DNA from: Nitrospirota bacterium | GTDB lineage: Bacteria; Nitrospirota; UBA9217 | Assembly (NCBI GenBank): GCA_963754875.1 | Contig: CAVWHO010000013.1 | Span: 64,001-128,000 of the forward strand | Reading direction: 5' to 3' | DNA: 64,000 bases | Shown here: piece by piece, positions 13,116 through 61,687 of the stretch | How positions within the stretch are numbered: the first letter of the stretch is position 1 | Layout: each line of letters starts with the position of its first letter | Notes under the pieces: model-generated | Seen by the model: only the letters and a program-made list of their open reading frames with translations | Database searches by the model: none | Told to the model about the DNA's origin: nothing | Made by a program: the position numbers and the translations under genes

Positions 13116-13965
13116 TTACCGCGTGAACAGGTCCGAGATCTTTGTGATATCCGGCGCTACGTAATGTATGACCCAGGCTGCTGCGAAGGAGATTAGGAGT
13201 ACAACGAGAAAGGGTTTATAAGTGTCTTTGAACACACTGCCTATCCAGTCAGGGTGGTTTATTTTCCTGTAGCTCCGGATAAGGCTGGAACCGAGCAGAA
13301 AGTCGAAGGCCGCCTCGGACAGGATATGAGGCGCTATATAAATGAGGTAGATTGCCGATCCGAAGACCGCTGCCAGGAGCACGATGATGGCGACGAGGAT
13401 CATCCAGCCGTCATCGAGATCGAAGATGCCTGACGCTGCATTGCCGACCGCATCACCTACGCCGGATGCCGAGTCCGCAGCACTGGAAGAGGGGGGCACG
13501 AAAGCCGCCTGCACATTCGTCACCGGGCCGTCGAACGCGCCCGTTGCTCCGCCACCGCCGCCCGTCCCGCCGCCTCCCTTGCCGAAACTCTGGAATTTCC
13601 ACATCGGGCCCGGAGCCACCGCCGGACAAGTTCGGCAGATCGGAAAGCACATCTCCGGCAACATCGGGACCCTTAAACGCCTGGGAAGCCGACATATAAG
13701 CCAGCCACAGCTTTACGAACAGAAAGAATGCGAGATAGGCACAGAGCACGGTCAACGGATAGCGGACGACGATGTTGTCCACCTGCAGGAGGAGAAGCAG
13801 CTTTGAAGCCAGGAGTCCGGACAGACCTGTTGCCAGCAGGATCAGCGACATATGGAAACGGAGAAAGAACCGTTCCTTGAGTTGGCGCATGAACGACCGC
13901 ACCTTCTTGCCGCTTTGCTTACCTTGTTGAGCGGCGGGAATGCTTTTATTATCATGAATAGTCAT
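13116..13965 (-). CDS. Hypothetical membrane protein with Gly-rich loop (one frameshift near 13650)
   Basis: ORFs 13453..14211 and 13116..13664 join into one multi-TM protein. Confidence 0.65.
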
Positions 13966-13982
13966 AGAGTGATAGCTGGGGA

Positions 13983-14042
13983 ACAGAACACGCCGGTCAC
14001 GCGCCGCCTTTTGGCGCGTCGCTGTGGACCGGCAGGTTATCC
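13983..14042 (-). other. attC: attC site 6 (last in the array)
   Basis: Top strand GGATAAC ctgcc ggtCcac ... gtgacc ggcgt GTTCTGT; R'' is the exact complement of the cassette start GTTATCC. Confidence 0.9.
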
Positions 14043-14471
14043 TTTTGCTATTATGTATGCCTTTACGTCGTGCCGCATGAAGTAGACGAATATTAGAACA
14101 TTTACAAGGCAAAGAGAAATTACCAGTAAAGAGGGCAAGCTCAAAAACGGAATCGTTGAGGCAACTGGCAGGTAATAGTAAATTGTCGTGATCAAGCTGT
14201 ATAACACACAAATCAAAATTGATATTCGTCCAATCTCTTTTAGTTTAAAGATCCAAATGCCCGCAACGATTAACGCGAGGCTTTGTATGAGCCAGATCGT
14301 ATCAGAAATAGACGTATCGCCTTGGGCCTCGAACGCTGTCTTCAGCTGAGGTATGGCTGACATCAGAAATAGTATCGCACTGCCGATTATTCCAATGCAG
14401 CCTAGAAAAATGCAAACACCTCTAAACAAAGTAAAGAATTTCGGCCGAGTATTTGAAGTTGAAGGTTTCAT
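14037..14471 (-). CDS. Cassette 6: 4-TM hypothetical membrane protein
   Basis: Four hydrophobic segments; AGGAGG RBS; stop codon lies inside attC R''. Confidence 0.8.
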   Translation of the reverse strand: MKPSTSNTRPKFFTLFRGVCIFLGCIGIIGSAILFLMSAIPQLKTAFEAQGDTSISDTIWLIQSLALIVAGIWIFKLKEIGRISILICVLYSLITTIYYYLPVASTIPFLSLPSLLVISLCLVNVLIFVYFMRHDVKAYIIAKG

Positions 14472-14488
14472 GTGCCTCCTAAACGAGC

Positions 14489-14546
14489 GGATAACGCGCG
14501 GGTGAGCCGCGTGTTTTTCGCGGCGGTCTCGACCCGCTCGTTGGTT
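14489..14546 (-). other. attC: attC site 5
   Basis: AACCAAC gagcg ggtCgag ... ctcacc cgcgc GTTATCC. Confidence 0.9.
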
Positions 14547-14906
14547 CTAATCTCGGGATAAGCGTGCTGCTTTTTCTTTGCCTAACTCAGAAAGAACCCA
14601 CGTTCCGTAAGGTGAATGCGACGGATCAAGCAGTAGACCCTGTTTGACAAGCTTCCTCTTTGCCCAGTCTATATTATGTATCCAACGCTCCTTCGGTGGT
14701 CGCTGGCTCGTCAAAAGGGCATAGTCCGGCTCAGTAAATTGATTTGAATACGTACCATGAATTGTTTTGATTATTTCCTGTCTTTCCGCTTGAGCTCCTG
14801 CAAAGTGAATAAACGCAATAATTATTTCAAGAAATTCATCCTGCTCTATGCTCCCCAAAGACCCGCGACGAAGTCGTCTGCTTTTGAAATAATCAGGAAT
14901 TTGCAT
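14547..14906 (-). CDS. Cassette 5 gene B: stand-alone Mrr_N-like winged-helix protein
   Basis: ERWIHNIDWAKRKLVKQGLL...SPYGTWVLSELG resembles the Mrr N-terminal domain consensus (WAR.YL.KAGL...RG.W.LT..G). Confidence 0.7.
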   Translation of the reverse strand: MQIPDYFKSRRLRRGSLGSIEQDEFLEIIIAFIHFAGAQAERQEIIKTIHGTYSNQFTEPDYALLTSQRPPKERWIHNIDWAKRKLVKQGLLLDPSHSPYGTWVLSELGKEKAARLSRD

Positions 14907-14933
14907 TTATAACCTCCTGCCGGTCCTAGGATT

Positions 14934-15461
14934 TTAAAATTCATGGTTCGGGGCAAAGTCTTTCACCGATTCGAGAACGGGGTCGTAAAGCAATATCCAT
15001 AGATTCAGGTGCATTCTTAAGGAAGGACGAACGCGCTGCTTTAATTCACGGAGGTAGTGTGGTGAAGCGGGGAGTGCAAGACCAAGAAATAATTTCGCAT
15101 TTTTGACTTCTTCAGAATTGGAAAGTAATGTATAAGGGGGCAACTCGAAATATGTGACCACACTCGCTAGAGCACGATCAAAATTGTTTCTTTGAGTTTG
15201 ACTTGTTCCAGAACCGCTCCCTTTGCATTCGATACGCCACCATTCTTTTTCAGAAATACCCTCTATATCGGCACCTGAGGCGGAAAAGACAGGATTAATA
15301 CCGGCAGATGCAAATTTTTGTGAAATGGATGATAAAACTTCTGATGAATTTATACCTCTGCCGCGAGCTACTGAAAATCTGTATGGTATTACACCACGAT
15401 TAATCAGGAAATCGGTCGTCTTTTTCAGCACCGTCGATTCTTCAACGATAGGGAATGACAT
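14934..15461 (-). CDS. Cassette 5 gene A: PD-(D/E)XK restriction-like nuclease
   Basis: N-terminal helix with E, then GADIEG...WWRIECKG nuclease core. Confidence 0.65.
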   Translation of the reverse strand: MSFPIVEESTVLKKTTDFLINRGVIPYRFSVARGRGINSSEVLSSISQKFASAGINPVFSASGADIEGISEKEWWRIECKGSGSGTSQTQRNNFDRALASVVTYFELPPYTLLSNSEEVKNAKLFLGLALPASPHYLRELKQRVRPSLRMHLNLWILLYDPVLESVKDFAPNHEF

Positions 15462-15479
15462 ACGACCTCCGATTTTTCA

Positions 15480-15538
15480 AACTGACGCCGCCGTGAGGGG
15501 CGCGCCCTTTAGCGACCCTCTCGACGGCGTGGTTGGAA
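15480..15538 (-). other. attC: attC site 4 (non-canonical R' GTC)
   Basis: TTCCAAC cacgc cgtCgag ... ctcacg gcggc GTCAGTT. Confidence 0.85.
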
Positions 15539-15540
15539 TA

Positions 15541-15900
15541 TTATTTATTTTCTTTCGCTTGTAGTTTGACTATATGTTTATCAATAGCGGAGATATCTGA
15601 AAGCCAGTCACTTGGATTCTTTAACGCATTGTTGATTCTGTACTTGATAAATTCGTCCTTTGCTCGCAAATAGGATTTGAGCGCATTCGCATTTTCACCC
15701 ATCTTGGTATATGAACTTGCCATTTCTTTGTAAAATAACGGGATCACAATTCCAATAAATTTTGCGTCCAAATCCAATTGGATTATGTGATTGCAGCTTT
15801 TGATTACACCAGCCCAGTTCTTGTTCTTTTTACTTTTTCGTAAATCAGTTCTCAATTGTAGCCATTTTTTAAACAATTCATCATTCCAATCGGCTGACAA
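15541..15900 (-). CDS. Cassette 4 gene B: small helical TPR-like protein
   Basis: TTG start with GGAG RBS; YKEMASSYTKMGENANALKSYLRA is TPR-like. Confidence 0.6.
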   Translation of the reverse strand: MSADWNDELFKKWLQLRTDLRKSKKNKNWAGVIKSCNHIIQLDLDAKFIGIVIPLFYKEMASSYTKMGENANALKSYLRAKDEFIKYRINNALKNPSDWLSDISAIDKHIVKLQAKENK

Positions 15901-15911
15901 GGCATTCTCCC

Positions 15912-16865
15912 CTAAAGTTGAGTCTCTGTAATGGAATTAAAATGAATGAATATATGGTCAGATTCATTACGCACGTAGTCGTTTAATGCAAAATTGACCG
16001 CAGAATATCGCACCATTCCCGCGGCTGTACCATCGTGATAAATATTGGGGAAAGCTGGCAAAGTTAGCTGTTTGCCAATCAAATGACAATCTTTATTCGA
16101 AAAGGGAAGGGCAATTTGAAATGTAAAATTAGAAAAAGCTATAAAGAAGATCGTATATGGCAAGTCGGCTGTATCTACTTTTCTTTTTAAGAGTGTGGCC
16201 ATAATGAATGGGAATGGTTTGGGTCCGGGAGTAAAAGAGCATATCGTGCTAAATGGACCGGCCGCAGCAACAGGATCGTTTTGCGGATTTTCTATCAGAA
16301 GCCATTTTATCGTATCGGTGAAATATGGTAATTCACTATCGGGTAAAATAGATATGCCCATCTTGACGAGGCATTTAAAAACAGATCGTGGTATATATGG
16401 CTGGCGGTAGCCTCGTATTTTAACCCTTTTATTGTCCAGATCGAGTTCAATAAAGTTGTCATCAGGGTGATAAATTATTTCTATCCGATTATTGAGACTA
16501 TCTATCCGGGATTGTTGTGACTGAGATTTATAAGATGGCCTTTTCTTACCTTTAATTTGTGTGATTGCGCGTGCGAGAAGCGTGTACTTTCCCAAATGAT
16601 CTTCGATTGTTCTACTGAAACGTTCATTACAAATATCGCACTCGGAATTAGATATCAGTTCTCTATTACCTATCAATTCAGGGAACGCGTGTGCTTCCAG
16701 TCTAAATTTGCTCGGATCATTTTCACCACAAAAACGACATTGTCTTTTTGTTTTATCTCCTATATACAATTTGCGACCGGAATTCAAAGGCAGAGGTGCC
16801 AAATAATAATTCTCGTCATAGAACTTGATCATCTCCTGCATTTCCTTGGAAAATACATGGTCCAT
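15912..16865 (-). CDS. Cassette 4 gene A: HNH endonuclease (HNH_5-like)
   Basis: CRFC...AHAFPELIG...ECDICNERF; start set to the first ATG downstream of attC 3. Confidence 0.8.
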   Translation of the reverse strand: MDHVFSKEMQEMIKFYDENYYLAPLPLNSGRKLYIGDKTKRQCRFCGENDPSKFRLEAHAFPELIGNRELISNSECDICNERFSRTIEDHLGKYTLLARAITQIKGKKRPSYKSQSQQSRIDSLNNRIEIIYHPDDNFIELDLDNKRVKIRGYRQPYIPRSVFKCLVKMGISILPDSELPYFTDTIKWLLIENPQNDPVAAAGPFSTICSFTPGPKPFPFIMATLLKRKVDTADLPYTIFFIAFSNFTFQIALPFSNKDCHLIGKQLTLPAFPNIYHDGTAAGMVRYSAVNFALNDYVRNESDHIFIHFNSITETQL

Positions 16866-16898
16866 TTTGGTTCCTTGTTTGTTGCCTGAATTTGATCG

Positions 16899-16956
16899 GT
16901 ACAACACGCGGGTGAGGAGCGTGCCTTCCGCGACTCACTCGACCCGCAGGTTGATT
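16899..16956 (-). other. attC: attC site 3
   Basis: AATCAAC ctgcg ggtCgag ... ctcacc cgcgt GTTGTAC. Confidence 0.88.
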
Positions 16957-17693
16957 TACGTTCCTTTTTTTGGTGTGCGTTCCTTAAAATATTCTTTCAC
17001 TGCATCGGCAAGTAAAGCGGCAACTTTATCAAGCGAAGCGTCATCTATTGCGAATTGTTGTTTGGAAGTAGATGAGATGCGAAAATCTATCAGAATAGTA
17101 GGCAACTGTGCGTTTTTGAGAAGATAATCCTTCCCCCTGCGCAATTCGACACAGTCGTGTGATGATTCTTTAAATTTCCGTGAAACAATATCGGCTAGAA
17201 ATATACTTTCTTCTATGATGTCATCAACTTTAAGATCATTATATATTTTGTCCAGGAGAGGGTCTAGTTCTTCTGCTTTGGCAGTCTTGCTGCTAGTTTG
17301 TGGTTTTCTGATTGGGATAGATGGAAACAATATTTGCACGCAATCCTTACTTGCTCTGCTTACCTTGAGCGCAAGGTGAATGTCGGCTCTCTTTGACTTT
17401 CCCTGAAATAGTCTGTCATCAAGAGTAACAAACTTATCTTCGGAACGAGTAAGATAAATTTTGAATTCAGCTACATTTAGCAAACCTTGAAGTTTTTGAG
17501 CTATCTCGAGGGTTATATTCTTGCCATATTTTTTCTGTGCGATAAAGGGACCGCTTTCCTTCCCTCCATACCACGGGTCAATAATGATTGTCTTTTGACT
17601 ATTCGAAGATGTGTCAGCGCTGCTGGCGGCTAGTGGCCCGAGGAGTTGAATACAAAAGATAAATATTATAAAGGCAGCCAATTTATGTTTCAT
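16956..17693 (-). CDS. Cassette 3: secreted Amidase_3-fold protein with degenerate active site
   Basis: Signal peptide; IIIDPWYGG, YLTRSEDKFVTLDDR and YLLKNAQLPTILID follow the AmiA/CwlC scaffold but lack the Zn ligands. Confidence 0.75.
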   Translation of the reverse strand: MKHKLAAFIIFIFCIQLLGPLAASSADTSSNSQKTIIIDPWYGGKESGPFIAQKKYGKNITLEIAQKLQGLLNVAEFKIYLTRSEDKFVTLDDRLFQGKSKRADIHLALKVSRASKDCVQILFPSIPIRKPQTSSKTAKAEELDPLLDKIYNDLKVDDIIEESIFLADIVSRKFKESSHDCVELRRGKDYLLKNAQLPTILIDFRISSTSKQQFAIDDASLDKVAALLADAVKEYFKERTPKKGT

Positions 17694-17705
17694 ATTGATC
17701 CTCAA

Positions 17706-17759
17706 AACTAACGCCGACGTGAACGGCGCGAAGCGACCGTTTCGACGGCGTGGTTAAAA
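17706..17759 (-). other. attC: attC site 2
   Basis: TTTTAAC cacgc cgtCgaa ... ttcacg tcggc GTTAGTT. Confidence 0.9.
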
Positions 17760-17780
17760 ATTCAGGGAGGATATATTCAA

Positions 17781-18047
17781 ATGGAAACATGGTACAAATA
17801 TTCATCATCAGCGTGGAGAAACGAACCGCACATTGTTCCGGTGCAGGTAGAAAAATCGTCTGCATCCTCTGTTTGGATCAATGGTAGGCCGGTGCGATTG
17901 CAGTCTACCTATGACAATTACTTCCGCACGTTCGATGAGGCGAAACAGTATGCAGTAAACAAATTCACAAAGCGAGTTGAACAACTCAAAGAACAGCTTT
18001 TGAGAGCAGAAGGTACGCTGAAAGAAGTACGGGATCAAACTATTTAA
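17781..18047 (+). CDS. Cassette 2: antisense-oriented 88-aa hypothetical protein (phage-like)
   Basis: GGGAGG RBS; ORF fills the interval between attC 2 and attC 1; C-terminal coiled coil. Confidence 0.7.
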   Translation: METWYKYSSSAWRNEPHIVPVQVEKSSASSVWINGRPVRLQSTYDNYFRTFDEAKQYAVNKFTKRVEQLKEQLLRAEGTLKEVRDQTI

Positions 18048-18096
18048 CGCGGCGGTCACAAGCCGCAGGCGGTCTTTGTGGACCGCCTTGTTATCT
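18042..18096 (-). other. attC: attC site 1
   Basis: AGATAAC aaggc ggtCcac ... gtgacc gccgc GTTAAAT. Confidence 0.88.
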
Positions 18097-18119
18097 TTGT
18101 TGTAGAAAGGAGAAGCACA

Positions 18120-18299
18120 ATGTCGGAATCAAAATATGAATCATTTGCATCCATCAGCGAACTAAAGCCGGGCATGATAGTTCGCGGAAAATCAACCGGA
18201 CAGGCGTTTATGGTCATTGTAAACTTTGGGGACCGAGTTACCGCCGTAAGTACGGCAGACGTAACGAATCCCGATGAGTGGGAAGTTTTAAAAAAATAA
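18120..18299 (+). CDS. Cassette 1: antisense-oriented 59-aa hypothetical protein (small beta-barrel-like)
   Basis: AAGGAG RBS; ELKPGMIVRGK resembles KOW/SH3-like starts; stop codon lies inside the attI core. Confidence 0.65.
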   Translation: MSESKYESFASISELKPGMIVRGKSTGQAFMVIVNFGDRVTAVSTADVTNPDEWEVLKK

Positions 18300-18312
18300 C
18301 AAGTAATTAGTC
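18294..18312 (-). other. attI: attI core site
   Basis: Top strand GACTAAT-TACTT-GTTATTT (7-5-7 geometry as in attI1 CCCTAAA-ACAAA-GTTAGGC); GTTATTT nearly complements R'' AGATAAC of attC 1. Confidence 0.75.
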
Positions 18313-18321
18313 TTTCGGGAT

Positions 18322-18352
18322 ACAGTAGCATAGAACGGGCAAGCCAGTCAAT
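18322..18352 (-). promoter_or_regulatory. Candidate cassette promoter Pc
   Basis: TTGACT-18 nt-TACTGT with extended TG, pointing into attI. Confidence 0.45.
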
Positions 18353-18368
18353 GAGTTTAAGAAAGAAC

Positions 18369-18397
18369 TTGACGTAACTTCCTGAAATCGTTATGCT
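18369..18397 (+). promoter_or_regulatory. Candidate integrase promoter Pint
   Basis: TTGACG-17 nt-TATGCT. Confidence 0.55.
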
Positions 18398-18488
18398 TGC
18401 ACAAAAAGACTAATATGCAAAATGACGGCAAGTTATATTATTGAAACTAATATGCAAAAACGGTATTCGCTATTTTGAGGAGAACTGC

Positions 18489-19916
18489 ATGCAGCCCATT
18501 CCAGAAGATATTCTGACGCCATTTAATGCAGTTTTGGCACAGAAGGCAGTCTCATCTTCGTTGCAAGACGAGTATCGGAAATGGCTTAAGTATTACCTTG
18601 ATTTCCGGGTAAAGTATCCGCCGCCGGACAGTAAATCCGAACAGGTCCGCTTGTTTATCGAAAAGATGCGCTCAAAGGGAAAGTCCGGAAAGGATTTGCA
18701 TCATGCCGCACATGCGTTGTCGCTCTTTTTCTCGCTGCAATCCCATAAAAAACAAGCTGCGTCGCATGCCGAACGCGTAAGAGAGGAACTCTCCGCTGGT
18801 ACCTTGACCGGCCCGATAACACGGCGCGATGGGGAAAAGCGCTCCCTTGAACGGACTGCTGGGAGGGATATCACCTCGGCAATCAGAGTTCCGACGGCCA
18901 ACCGCCCGGGCAGAAAGTACGACGAGTGGTGGTGTTTGGAGAAGACGAAATCCCCGGCCTGGGACGCGATCATCGATAAACTGGCAGGGGAGATCAAGAC
19001 GCGGCATTATTCACGGAAGACGCTCAAGGCCTATGCGGACTGGTCCCGTAAATTTCAGATCTATCTGAAGGACAAGCCGCCGGACGGCCTGTCTGCCGAA
19101 GACGTGAAGGCGTATCTCACGTACCTCGCGGTTCGATCCAAAGTGTCGGCATCGACCCAGAACCAGGCGTTCAATGCATTATTATTCCTGTTTCGGCATA
19201 TTCTGAAGAAGGATTTCGGAGATCACAAGGACACGCCGCGCGCGAAAAAATCGAGTTATATCCCCGTTGTTCTGACGAGAAAAGAGGTCGATGCAGTGAT
19301 CGGCCGGCTTCCGCCGCCCTATGATCTGGTGGTGAAGCTTCTGTACGGGTGCGGGCTCCGGCTGTTCGAATGCCTGAAACTCCGTGTGCAGAACTTCAAT
19401 TTCGACGAAGGGGTGCTTCTGATCATGGACGGCAAGGGGAAGAAGGCGCGCACGGTCCCAATTCCGCAGGTGATCGTGCAGGAACTGCTGGCGCAGCTTG
19501 AAGCGGTCAAGCAACTTCACGACCAGGACCTGAGGGCCGGATATTCGGGGGTGTTTCTCGACGACGCGCTGGATAAAAAATACAGGAATGCTTCGAAAGA
19601 TTTCATCTGGCAATGGTTCTTCCCGCAACAGTCCCTGACCTTCCTGCAGGAAACGAATGAGCTGCGGCGGTATCATTTAACCGACAAGGACGTGCAGGGG
19701 CCGCTATACACCGCGGTCCGGAAGGCGAAGCTCACGAAGCGCGTCACTTCCCATACCTTCCGCCATTCCTTTGCCACGCATCTCCTGCAGGCCAACTATG
19801 ATATCCGCACGATCCAGGAAATGCTTGGCCATGCCGATGTGAGAACGACGATGATCTATACGCACTGCGTGCCGAGCAGGACCGCAAAAGAGCGGAAAAG
19901 CCCGCTGGATTTTTGA
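18489..19916 (+). CDS. intI: Integron integrase with N-terminal extension
   Basis: Tyrosine recombinase residues (GLR, GKG.K.R, HTFRH, LGH, TMIYTH); SASTQNQAFNALLFL; integron-specific insert WQWFFP...RRYHL. Confidence 0.95.
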   Translation: MQPIPEDILTPFNAVLAQKAVSSSLQDEYRKWLKYYLDFRVKYPPPDSKSEQVRLFIEKMRSKGKSGKDLHHAAHALSLFFSLQSHKKQAASHAERVREELSAGTLTGPITRRDGEKRSLERTAGRDITSAIRVPTANRPGRKYDEWWCLEKTKSPAWDAIIDKLAGEIKTRHYSRKTLKAYADWSRKFQIYLKDKPPDGLSAEDVKAYLTYLAVRSKVSASTQNQAFNALLFLFRHILKKDFGDHKDTPRAKKSSYIPVVLTRKEVDAVIGRLPPPYDLVVKLLYGCGLRLFECLKLRVQNFNFDEGVLLIMDGKGKKARTVPIPQVIVQELLAQLEAVKQLHDQDLRAGYSGVFLDDALDKKYRNASKDFIWQWFFPQQSLTFLQETNELRRYHLTDKDVQGPLYTAVRKAKLTKRVTSHTFRHSFATHLLQANYDIRTIQEMLGHADVRTTMIYTHCVPSRTAKERKSPLDF

Positions 19917-37158: not shown

Positions 37159-37452
37159 ATGCCAATGGATCGACTTACGACAACTATCAAACGCCCCTGG
37201 CTTGCGGAAATCATTGCTGGCATCAAAAAAATAGAATATCGAGAGATCAAACCGTACTGGCGTGATCGCTTAGCTCAGGTGAAAATACCCTTTGAATTAA
37301 GATTAATCAATGGCATGCAGCGCCGCGCCCCCGAAGTCACTGTTCTCATCAACAAAGTGAAGAAAGATATACGCAATGGCGTCTATGAATTGCATATCCG
37401 TAAAGTTATCTCGTTCATGAACTGGGATCGTTCTCGTAGCGTGCGAAGGTAA
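37159..37452 (+). CDS. ASCH/PUA-domain protein
   Basis: IKRPWLAEIIAGIKKIEYR (GxKxxExR ASCH motif). Confidence 0.8.
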   Translation: MPMDRLTTTIKRPWLAEIIAGIKKIEYREIKPYWRDRLAQVKIPFELRLINGMQRRAPEVTVLINKVKKDIRNGVYELHIRKVISFMNWDRSRSVRR

Positions 37453-37507
37453 CGCTGGCTACAGCCCCAGCCATCAAATCACCTGGCCCGCCAGCGAAAA
37501 GCACCAC

Positions 37508-37536
37508 TTGACATTAATAAACAATTTGTTTATAAT
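37508..37536 (+). promoter_or_regulatory. higBA promoter with palindromic operator
   Basis: TTGACA-17-TATAAT containing ATAAACAA-T-TTGTTTAT. Confidence 0.8.
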
Positions 37537-37542
37537 CTTCCC

Positions 37543-37824
37543 ATGATTCAGTCATTTGCCTCCTCCGAAACGGAACGTTTTTTTGCCACTGGAAAATCTC
37601 GCCGCTTGCCGCAGGACATGCTGAAGCGAGCAGCAATGCGCTTGACGCAATTGGACGGAGCCGTGAGTCTCGACGATTTGCGCATCCCGACTTCCAACAA
37701 ACTGGAGGCGTTGGCTCATGACCGCGCCGGTCAATGGAGCATTCGCATTAACGATCAGTGGCGAGTATGTTTCCGATTTAAAAATGGTGACGCTTATGAC
37801 GTTGAAATCGTTGATTATCACTAA
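37543..37824 (+). CDS. higB: HigB toxin (RelE/ParE family)
   Basis: MIQSF...NKLEAL..DRAGQWSIRINDQWRVCF...VEIVDYH. Confidence 0.93.
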   Translation: MIQSFASSETERFFATGKSRRLPQDMLKRAAMRLTQLDGAVSLDDLRIPTSNKLEALAHDRAGQWSIRINDQWRVCFRFKNGDAYDVEIVDYH

Positions 37825-37837
37825 AGGAGACACAAAC

Positions 37838-38135
37838 ATGGTTAAGAATGGTTTGCCTGCAATTCATCCGGGAGAATTCCTGGCAGAAATCTTGGGAGAA
37901 ATGGGTATATCTCAGGCTGAGTTCGCGCGCACTATCGGGGTATCGCCGATGCGGATTTCGCATGTTATCAAAGGGCGATCGTCCGGTAACAGCGGAACTG
38001 GCATTGTTGTTCGGTCGTGCGTTTAACCAGACGCCGCAATACTGGCTCAATCTTCAGGCGTCTTACGATTTAAAAATCGCGAAGGCGAGTATCGGTAAGC
38101 GCCTTGCTGGTATACATGCCCTCGCACATGCCTAA
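37838..38135 (+). CDS. higA: HigA antitoxin (frameshift near 37975)
   Basis: IHPGEFL and HTH, then PVTAELALLF...YWLNLQASYDL in the next frame. Confidence 0.9.
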
Positions 38136-38162
38136 TCTTCTTCTAGCAATACTCGAAAATAA

Positions 38163-38221
38163 TTCCAACATGCGGGTCGTGTGGGTCGCTGAGAAGCGCG
38201 CCCTACACCCGCGCGTTGACT
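38163..38221 (+). other. attC: Solitary attC site
   Basis: TTCCAAC atgcg ggtCgtg ... tacacc cgcgc GTTGACT; shares GGGTCGCT...GCGCGCCC with attC 4. Confidence 0.8.
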
Positions 38222-42506: not shown

Positions 42507-42589
42507 GTCCCGATAAAGCCAAACCTTTCGCGAGGAGGGGGCGGAAAGCAACGGGCCTTTCAAGAAAAGACGGCCGCTGCCGAAGGGGA
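42507..42589 (+). ncRNA. GEMM-I / c-di-GMP-I riboswitch
   Basis: CGATAAAGCCAAACC-TTCGCGAGG-GGGGCGGAAAGC...GGCC...CTGCCGAA matches the GEMM-I consensus. Confidence 0.85.
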
Positions 42590-60468: not shown

Positions 60469-61687
60469 CAATCAAGGAAAAGGCAAAACAGGCAGAAAAA
60501 AAGCCCGCTGCCATCGGCCCGGACATCGATCTCAACGAATATTCCCAGCAGGCGGAGGATCATGGCGAGATCGGAAAACTAGCCGGACTGTCACCGATGA
60601 CGTGAAGGATCGAGCTATCACCGTGGGCATTGACGCGGAGGAGGCGTGCAGGTCCGGGTCGTTCTTCCAGATGGACCATTCGGTCATTCTCGCTGCAGCG
60701 CATCAAAGCGGGCTGGAAGTGATGAGCACCACGGAAGCGCTCGAAAAATACGATTGGCTCAAGGACTACTGGTGGAAGGCCGTGGAGGTGGACGCGGACA
60801 AATATACGGCCCAGGCGGAGTTGCAGCAGCACCAGGGATATTTTTTGAGGGCCTTGCCCGGTGCAACACGGCGGAGTTTCCCCTGCAGGCTTGCCTCTAT
60901 ATGGGCCAGGAAGGAATGGCGCAGAATGTCCATAACATCATAATTGCCGAGGAAGGTTCCGAACTCCATATCATCACCGGGTGCACGACGGCACAGGGTG
61001 TAAGATCCGGTCTCCATGTCGGTGTTTCCGAGTTTTATATTAAAGAAGAACGCAAAGGTCACCTTTACCATGATCCACAACTGGGCAGAGGATGTGGCAG
61101 TGCGGCCGCGTACCGGCACGATTGTGGAAGAAAACGGCGTTTTCATGAGTAACTACATCTGCATGAGGCCGGTAAAAACGCTTCAAATGTATCCTACTAC
61201 CTACTGTATCGGCGAGAATGCCACGGTCCGCTACAATACCATTCTATCCGCTTCGCAGGGATCGAACATGGATGTGGGCTCCAAAGTTTTTTTGCGGGCA
61301 AAGGGGAGCAGGGCAGAGGTCGTGGCACGGGCGATCTCGAAAGGGGGCGCCATTGTCACGAGAGGTAATTTGATCGGCGAGGTCCCGGGAATCAAAGCAC
61401 ATCTGGAATGCAGGGGACTCATACTCTCCGAGCAGGGATCGATCCTCGCCATTCCCGAACTCGACGGCAGAGTGAGCGGCGTTGAAATGTCCCACGAGGC
61501 CGCGGTCGGCAAGATCGCGGAGGAGGAGATCCAGTATCTGATGGCCCGGGGGCTGACCGACGAAGAATCGACGGCCGCGATCGTCAGAGGGTTTTTGGAC
61601 GTCGAGATTAAGGGGTTGCCCGAGCATCTCCAGGCGGAGATCAAGAAGGCGGTCAGCTTGGGGGAAAAAGAGGAGCGCCTTTTGTAG
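60456..61687 (+). CDS. sufB: SufB/SufD-family (SmsB-like) Fe-S scaffold (several frameshifts)
   Basis: PLQACL, HIITGC, HLECRGL and SHEAAVGKI motifs across frames. Confidence 0.85.

Follow-up and report, generated by a model that had tools for sequence, protein, structure and literature searches.

The window analysed here is a stretch of 64,000 nucleotides from the genome of a Nitrospirota bacterium (assembly GCA_963754875.1, contig CAVWHO010000013.1), and coordinates given without a contig or phage name refer to it. Between positions 13983 and 19916 lies a complete chromosomal integron of canonical layout, with an integron integrase gene (intI), an attI recombination site and an array of six gene cassettes with their attC sites. 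Its completeness, already proposed in an initial annotation of the sequence, is borne out by the six attC sites, a conserved attI and an integrase scoring above the cut-off of TIGR02249. The overall layout is indeed canonical, as that annotation had it, but it overlooked that the two genes closest to attI run antisense to the polarity of the attC sites. The probable origin of these two inverted cassettes in phages is the main subject of this report. The features defining the array, including the open reading frames (ORFs) of the two inverted cassettes with their lengths in amino acids (aa), are the following.

18489-19916, plus strand: intI, 475 aa, long form, divergent from the array, TIGR02249
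18294-18351, minus strand: attI, core GTTATTT at 18294-18300, crossover between 18300 and 18299
18351-18346 (-35) and 18327-18322 (extended -10), minus strand: candidate promoter Pc, in a flank conserved among relatives
18120-18299, plus strand: ORF of cassette 1 (18048-18299), 59 aa, inverted, stop codon within the TAAC of the attI junction
18042-18096, minus strand: attC1 (attC grammar, alignment and covariance model)
17781-18047, plus strand: ORF of cassette 2 (17712-18047), 88 aa, inverted, stop codon within the TAAC of the attC1 junction
17706-17759, minus strand: attC2; the inverted gene's plus-strand ribosome-binding site and start come directly after it (grammar and covariance model)
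16899-16956, minus strand: attC3 (grammar, alignment and covariance model)
15480-15538, minus strand: attC4, R' = GTC (grammar, alignment and covariance model)
14489-14546, minus strand: attC5 (grammar, alignment and covariance model)
13983-14042, minus strand: attC6, last site of the array (grammar, alignment and covariance model)

The attC sites were called with a strict grammar and with covariance models (R1 and R2) built in this analysis rather than with those of IntegronFinder. By the strict grammar, six sites were observed in 13901-18400 against a mean of 0.013 and a maximum of 1 in 300 dinucleotide shuffles, and none on the opposite strand of the same region; over the whole window only one further match was found, 95 bp long (60573-60667) and without support from the covariance models. 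All six sites fall at the coordinates implied by the initial annotation and have the properties it had listed: they are 54–60 bp long, have the minus strand as top strand throughout and carry an extra C in L'', with GTC as R' in one case. In the six-site alignment 97.2% of the cells are paired and 10 of 18 pairs are changed on both sides, compared with 32–51% pairing in slid controls, the structure having been taken from the same six sites, which favours it. The extrahelical G on the bottom strand is invariant, and two more unpaired bases are found closer to the loop. The core of each cassette agrees with its own R'' at 7/7, 5/7, 5/7, 5/7, 6/7 and 6/7 positions in the six cassettes, respectively; the three complementary pairs of cassette start and end quoted earlier are correct, and the other three are looser. 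The guanine-plus-cytosine (GC) content of the cassettes is 0.39–0.47, compared with about 0.55 in the flanks.

The attI core at 18294-18300 is conserved in relatives, and intI passes the TIGR02249 profile with 379 bits (cut-off 265), so that both the attI core and the divergent integrase of the initial annotation stand. Of 16 other regions upstream of intI that were compared in related genomes, 5 have the core together with a flanking motif and 2 more have the core part, and the similarity among relatives ends at the AAC crossover. This conserved flank is read here as Pc, a candidate promoter reading into the array; since it falls below the threshold of the consensus promoter scan and was not listed by it, its assignment is inferred. 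The assignment of IntI to its family was made from profile and structure matches. Its alignment with VchIntIA (E 7e-74) spans the IntI-specific insertion region with one single-residue gap, while the best Xer protein reached E 4.5e-27, and the best match among solved structures, by sequence as well as by fold, was VchIntIA (2a3v). The residues that we take to be the catalytic set, Arg291, His422, Arg425, His448 and Tyr457, are intact.

Orientation of the gene along the attC top strand is a usual, though not strict, feature of integrons. It is found in four of the six cassettes, the exceptions being the two that adjoin attI. Cassettes 1 and 2 each contain one small plus-strand gene, with its ribosome-binding site placed after the attC site and its stop codon forming the TAAC of the next junction. 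Insertion of the two cassettes the wrong way round, through the top strand, was ruled out as the cause, as attC1 and attC2 do not differ in polarity from the remaining four; the cassettes were therefore built antisense, not inserted backwards. No plus-strand promoter was listed by the consensus scan between 17248 and 18368. A search of 63 other genomes of the host family did not recover the 59-aa gene, and a single-sequence fold of its product is weak, with a predicted local distance difference test (pLDDT) score of 64. The 88-aa family was found neither in the genome collection nor by a single-sequence scan of the viral one; homologues of the 88-aa gene do, however, stand beside terminase genes in a viral contig (L098) and, in another case, in a phage-type operon without attC (L099). 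In the first of these contigs (280-880) the 88-aa phage homologue is flanked by TAAC-led repeats of another type, which are not scored by the attC models, and its stop codon also forms TAAC.

The 59-aa protein shows 92% identity to a relative in two viral contigs, which are identical to each other over the aligned stretch. The larger of these two records, G080, is 83 kb long and 93% complete according to CheckV. Over the ORF, the chromosomal gene and its G080 copy are 89% identical at the DNA level, the difference consisting of 12 synonymous and 5 non-synonymous codon changes. The local alignment ends at a shared TAAC, past which the window continues into attI and the phage into the first arm of an attC of the type found in host sites. 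G080 contains 12 attC-like sites according to model R2 and one more with the filters off; of these 13 sites, the minus arm carries four and the plus arm nine, and in every one of them the bottom strand is the coding strand of its own arm. At 65407-65510 of the phage (L102) there is a long attC-like site with a ribosome-binding site and a start codon in its loop, so that the gene starts inside the hairpin.

An IntI encoded by the phage was ruled out: no protein of G080 matched TIGR02249, and its sole tyrosine recombinase has an Arm-DNA-bind_3 domain, as an arm-binding prophage integrase, and lies beside a tRNA-derived core. With at least two attC sites and no IntI, G080 is a set of clustered attC sites without an integrase (CALIN) carried by a phage. 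In its available text, Qi et al. 2023 (PMC9892861) describe phages carrying such attC clusters without IntI and propose phages as cassette carriers; they also report recombination of phage attC bottom strands with attI1 under IntI1. G080 resembles those elements; the systematic reversal of the genes and the presence of a phage-type cassette in a host attI are features seen here that the same portion of the paper does not report. The DnaB protein of G080 is 67–79% identical to those of five of five genomes of the host family, as against 51–64% in the other families sampled. Its 23-base attachment core occurs in 25 genome records, 23 of them labelled as Nitrospirota-type, and corresponds in 22 of 23 bases to the tRNA-Arg(CCT) of the genome that contains the window (G000). 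Because both the DnaB identity and the attachment core point to this family, G080 is inferred to be a temperate phage of it.

Inverted cassettes are not confined to this locus. A search of 64 genomes for one attC site of G080 together with the leader following it yielded two other host genomes, G006 and G056. The first has one inverted DUF551 cassette, deep within its array. Between the junction and the start codon, the attC and leader of this cassette agree with a G080 site (88% identity over this module); the genes that follow differ. DUF551 matches three PHROG families. The second has three inverted small cassettes at the array head followed by forward cassettes, and one of the three inverted genes gave a PHROG match; this array adjoins a sulfate permease and an ABC-type gene (flank GC 57–63%), and no intI was found in the stretch examined around it. 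The attC-plus-leader module is thus shared by G080, G006 and G056 up to the start codon and heads three unrelated genes. Counting all three chromosomal loci, five of the six inverted cassettes seen stand at the array head. In a flank test of 109 host-array sites of this family, 85 were called top and 5 bottom, with 19 unassigned. A stricter census, from which the G056 array and cassette 1 were left out, covered 74 intervals between adjacent host attC sites: 34 were forward, 3 inverted and 37 unclassified, one of the three inverted ones (L058, 49 aa) being doubtful because longer forward frames are present there.

We consider it probable, though by a fair distance short of certain, that cassettes 1 and 2 were cut from the early operons of temperate phages, that the IntI of the host itself brought them into attI, and that they are silent there. 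The substrate that IntI recombines is the bottom strand of attC in its folded form, whatever gene lies between the sites. With the bottom strand of the phage attC sites on the coding strand, a circle excised in the host would therefore enter attI with its gene antisense to Pc, and this predicted geometry is the one seen at cassettes 1 and 2. The preference of IntI for the attC bottom strand is stated in the accessible part of Qi et al. 2023 (PMC9892861). A phage without IntI would, in this scheme, use the host enzyme for shuffling its small genes; an excised phage circle would recombine via the attC bottom strand like any cassette. The inverted gene would not be translated from Pc and would mostly be a by-product, later lost; the forward cassettes, with their nuclease pairs, membrane and secreted proteins, may represent retained and partly anti-phage cargo.

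Several observations weigh against this phage origin. The NCBI bin label of the phage protein is Anaerolineaceae, in disagreement with the host assignment of G080, and none of 41 spacers of the CRISPR array in G000 (C8:21.5-25 kb) matches the phage loci examined here. In G080 the 59-aa gene lacks an upstream attC and has no more than a half site downstream, and this phage is for that reason not the direct donor. When the flanks of seven G080 sites were tested automatically by longest frame, four were called bottom-coding, two top-coding and one received no call, the two top-coding calls arising because longer antisense frames overlap there; among 15 viral loci from a pattern scan, 7 were bottom, 6 top and 2 neither, so that reversal does not hold for all viral records. 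For the nearest homologues of the 88-aa gene (58–94% identity), no genomic context could be retrieved. Two of the inverted genes of G056 have no relative in the viral collection, and the G056 case itself came from a search with the phage leader, not from an unbiased census. Finally, no excised circle, empty attI or recombination event was observed. The earlier description of the platform as recently active gains only indirect support, from the intact catalytic residues, the near-perfect junctions and the 89%-identical phage counterpart; no excision joint was seen in the one soil run searched, which covered a small share of the stretch (contigs only, 7% of the words).

The traffic might also have run from host to phage, the inverted cassettes being occasional products of cassette formation in chromosomal arrays, which phages take up because no other polarity fits their operons. 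The decayed state of the phage copy next to an intact chromosomal cassette would agree with this, as would the scores of the phage sites under a host-trained model, lower than those of most host sites (19–48 bits against 27–73 bits). We nevertheless regard it as unlikely: more distant homologues of both genes stand in viral or phage-type operons without attC matches (L077, L078, L081, L082 and L099), the PHROG matches of DUF551 count against this direction, and hosts seldom have inverted cassettes, which in G080 are the rule. Distinctly unlikely, in our judgement, is an adaptive capture in which antisense RNA from Pc acts against phage early transcripts, or in which the captured genes confer superinfection exclusion from a promoter of their own. 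The head position of most inverted cassettes is where Pc would read most strongly, but recent insertion gives this position equally; the ORFs and ribosome-binding sites are intact, and at 89% identity the match to the phage gene still includes long stretches without a mismatch, yet intact frames may reflect selection in phages, the plus-strand scan listed no promoter of their own, and small accessory genes are unlikely to be essential.

About equally unlikely, finally, is an ordinary integron in which two cassettes are inverted by chance and the resemblance to the phage gene stems from a gene pool common to both, with no exchange through IntI. Cassette genes in opposite orientation are known, such as the symE cassette in Xanthomonas mentioned in the consulted portion of a preprint (bioRxiv 10.1101/2025.06.18.660453), and a close phage copy exists for just one of the two genes. 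This reading is countered, however, by the identity that stops exactly at the crossover while the phage goes on into an attC arm, by the attC-plus-leader module shared between phage and G006, and by the same polarity at all 13 phage sites.

The origin of integron cassettes is a long-standing open question. A bolder and rather unlikely extension of the phage origin favoured here is that temperate phages infecting this bacterial family keep a mirror-image cassette pool of their own. Its members would arise when a reusable attC-plus-leader module with its ribosome-binding site becomes joined to the start codon of a new gene, and the host enzyme IntI would shuffle them. By sampling this pool at attI, the integron of the host would record recent phage encounters at the array head and perhaps turn them into antisense RNA. 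If true, cassette birth, as well as phage-to-chromosome traffic via integrons, would be captured here in a natural snapshot. Long IntI proteins and phage CALINs have already been published, and for the host-side capture of reversed phage-type cassettes no report was found: a search of open-access full text, which left most subscription papers uncovered, yielded none on such cassettes in a host integron with a matching phage, and the available portions of a preprint on integrons in Archaea (10.1101/2022.02.06.479319) and of a review (PMC8876359) contain nothing on inverted phage cassettes held by hosts. The material presented here forms a matched set: IntI and attI are intact, two cassettes are inverted, a phage that likely infects the same host family has reversed sites and carries a nearly identical gene, and one leader stands before three different genes. 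IntI-driven transfer from phage to host thereby becomes directly testable, as does the formation of new cassettes by fusion of a leader to a gene.

The cassettes behind the two inverted ones carry the following forward genes.

16956-17705, minus strand: ORF of cassette 3 (16905-17711), Amidase_3 homologue (PF01520)
15912-16907, minus strand: first ORF of cassette 4 (15486-16904), HNH endonuclease, PF14279 (HNH_5) above cut-off, phrog_26663 E 1.5e-52
15541-15900, minus strand: second ORF of cassette 4, 119 aa, weak TPR-like match below cut-off (PF00515, E 0.014)
14934-15461, minus strand: first ORF of cassette 5 (14495-15485), 175 aa, likely PD-(D/E)XK nuclease
14547-14906, minus strand: second ORF of cassette 5, 119 aa, Mrr_N (PF14338, 32.3 bits, cut-off 29.5)
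14037-14471, minus strand: ORF of cassette 6 (13989-14494), 144 aa, hydrophobic, likely a membrane protein as judged by eye

The cargo had been described as uncharacterised and free of antibiotic-resistance genes. The latter agrees with our scans, which matched no resistance family among the cargo ORFs; the former applies to the remaining ORFs but not to the three of eight that pass their Pfam cut-off (Mrr_N, HNH_5 and Amidase_3). Scans with libraries of hidden Markov models (HMMs) matched no family for the cassette 6 protein and gave no HMM match for the 175-aa protein of cassette 5. Among the named Atlas clusters, Mrr_cat, XisH and PDDEXK come closest to the latter protein (0.87–0.90), which is to be taken as a lead only. 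The PD-(D/E)XK-like and Mrr_N proteins of cassette 5 are a candidate restriction-type defence pair, and the HNH nuclease of cassette 4 with its small TPR-like partner is a candidate defence gene. Among the described defence systems, the cargo matched none beyond a weak PADLOC match to a type IV restriction endonuclease (E 0.022), obtained for the Mrr_N ORF only, one of the eight cargo proteins. In the Amidase_3 protein, the three positions that presumably bind zinc are occupied by Tyr, Gly and Lys in an alignment to AmiC and AmiA, and the protein is likely inactive; it may serve as a cell-wall-binding or decoy protein. Right behind the last attC site (13116-13959), a membrane-protein-like gene is seemingly split into two frames by a frameshift and may be a terminal cassette without attC.

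The integron itself and its long IntI are of already known kinds and in that respect ordinary. The N-terminal extension of IntI, about 155–160 aa, is common to 146 homologues, and the few taxon names given for these include Nitrospirae/Nitrospirota; it is conserved across 52 aligned IntI sequences. The names carried by the homologues point to Nitrospirota, and the earlier remark that the lineage is poorly studied is supported; the phylum Nitrospira is mentioned with just 2 CALINs in the available text of the IntegronFinder 2.0 paper (PMC9024848). Among 24 further genomes of the host family, 13 have a match to the long IntI (E 1e-40) and 23 have attC matches. The fold model has four helices at residues 6–85 (block pLDDT 73–89), followed by a variable linker of low confidence and then the IntI core, and Pfam places two PF13495 (SAM_4) stretches in the protein, with a weak self-match (E 0.002). 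As modelled, the extension looks like a second SAM-like, or core-binding, domain at residues ~1–85. Nemergut et al. 2008 (PMC2426708, as far as available) described an IntI clade, 'clade 15', that is ~120 aa longer through gene fusion. The present IntI resembles it in having a conserved N-terminal extension, a likeness by description and not by tree; the extra part is not identified in the accessible text of that paper (PMC2426708), whereas here it resembles a second SAM-like domain. With the sedentary chromosomal integrons (VchIntIA, PDB 2a3v) the locus shares the divergent intI, the attI at the array head, the low-GC cassettes and the short attC sites, which have extrahelical bases as well as L and R boxes. 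It differs from them in the ~155 aa longer IntI, in the two newest cassettes being inverted and phage-like, and in a genome that also holds many attC sites and two decayed platforms elsewhere. Two further features lie in the intI leader.

18369-18397, plus strand: candidate integrase promoter, 9/12 consensus matches
18409 and 18446 (leader to 18459), plus strand: 14-bp box in two copies, possible operator, conserved variants in close relatives

The 14-bp box occurs only these two times in the genome. Close relatives and a platform on contig C21 of the same genome keep it in the form of an imperfect palindrome, and it could be the operator of some regulator. As to SOS control, other relatives have in their intI promoters a box like the one preceding one lexA gene (C13:26861); this box is absent from the present intI leader.

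Outside the array, model R2 found at least 23 attC sites in the whole genome, at least 17 of them outside the array, with 150 of 2554 candidates scored; a genome-wide scan with the grammar gave 12 matches against 3 in a reversed-genome control. One of these sites lies in the window.

38163-38221, plus strand: seventh, isolated attC, 54 bits with model R1

It is positioned downstream of a 97-aa ORF and a HigB-type toxin-antitoxin pair (PF05015; region 37159-38221), in which the antitoxin frame is seemingly shifted; a GTT core stands just ahead of the first gene, and the element is likely a single attC site lacking an integrase (SALIN). Small attC clusters were also found on contigs C1, C8, C15 and C16. 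On C20 (162-180 kb; L050, L051 and L007) there is a decayed second integron with a truncated C-terminal intI remnant by an IS91-type transposase, four attC sites and further insertion sequences. The C21 platform (205.4-206.8 kb; L133) consists of a copy of attI/Pc and the leader without intI, followed by cassette-like genes with only a weak attC match; one of these genes begins with the same residues as a G006 cassette gene. Beside or within four of the satellite attC clusters (L049, L050, L051 and L055) lie Y1 (IS200-like) transposase genes, which by their motif we take to be RAYT-type. The isolated sites and small clusters across the genome are similar to the CALIN and SALIN elements in the available text of a preprint (bioRxiv 10.1101/2022.09.11.507474), but at least two satellite loci, those on C20 and C21, look like decayed integrons instead of the attG insertions described in the same text. 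Elsewhere in the window, the Rfam scan gave no match to an attC family; its sole match was a c-di-GMP-I riboswitch at 42508-42584, above the Rfam gathering score.

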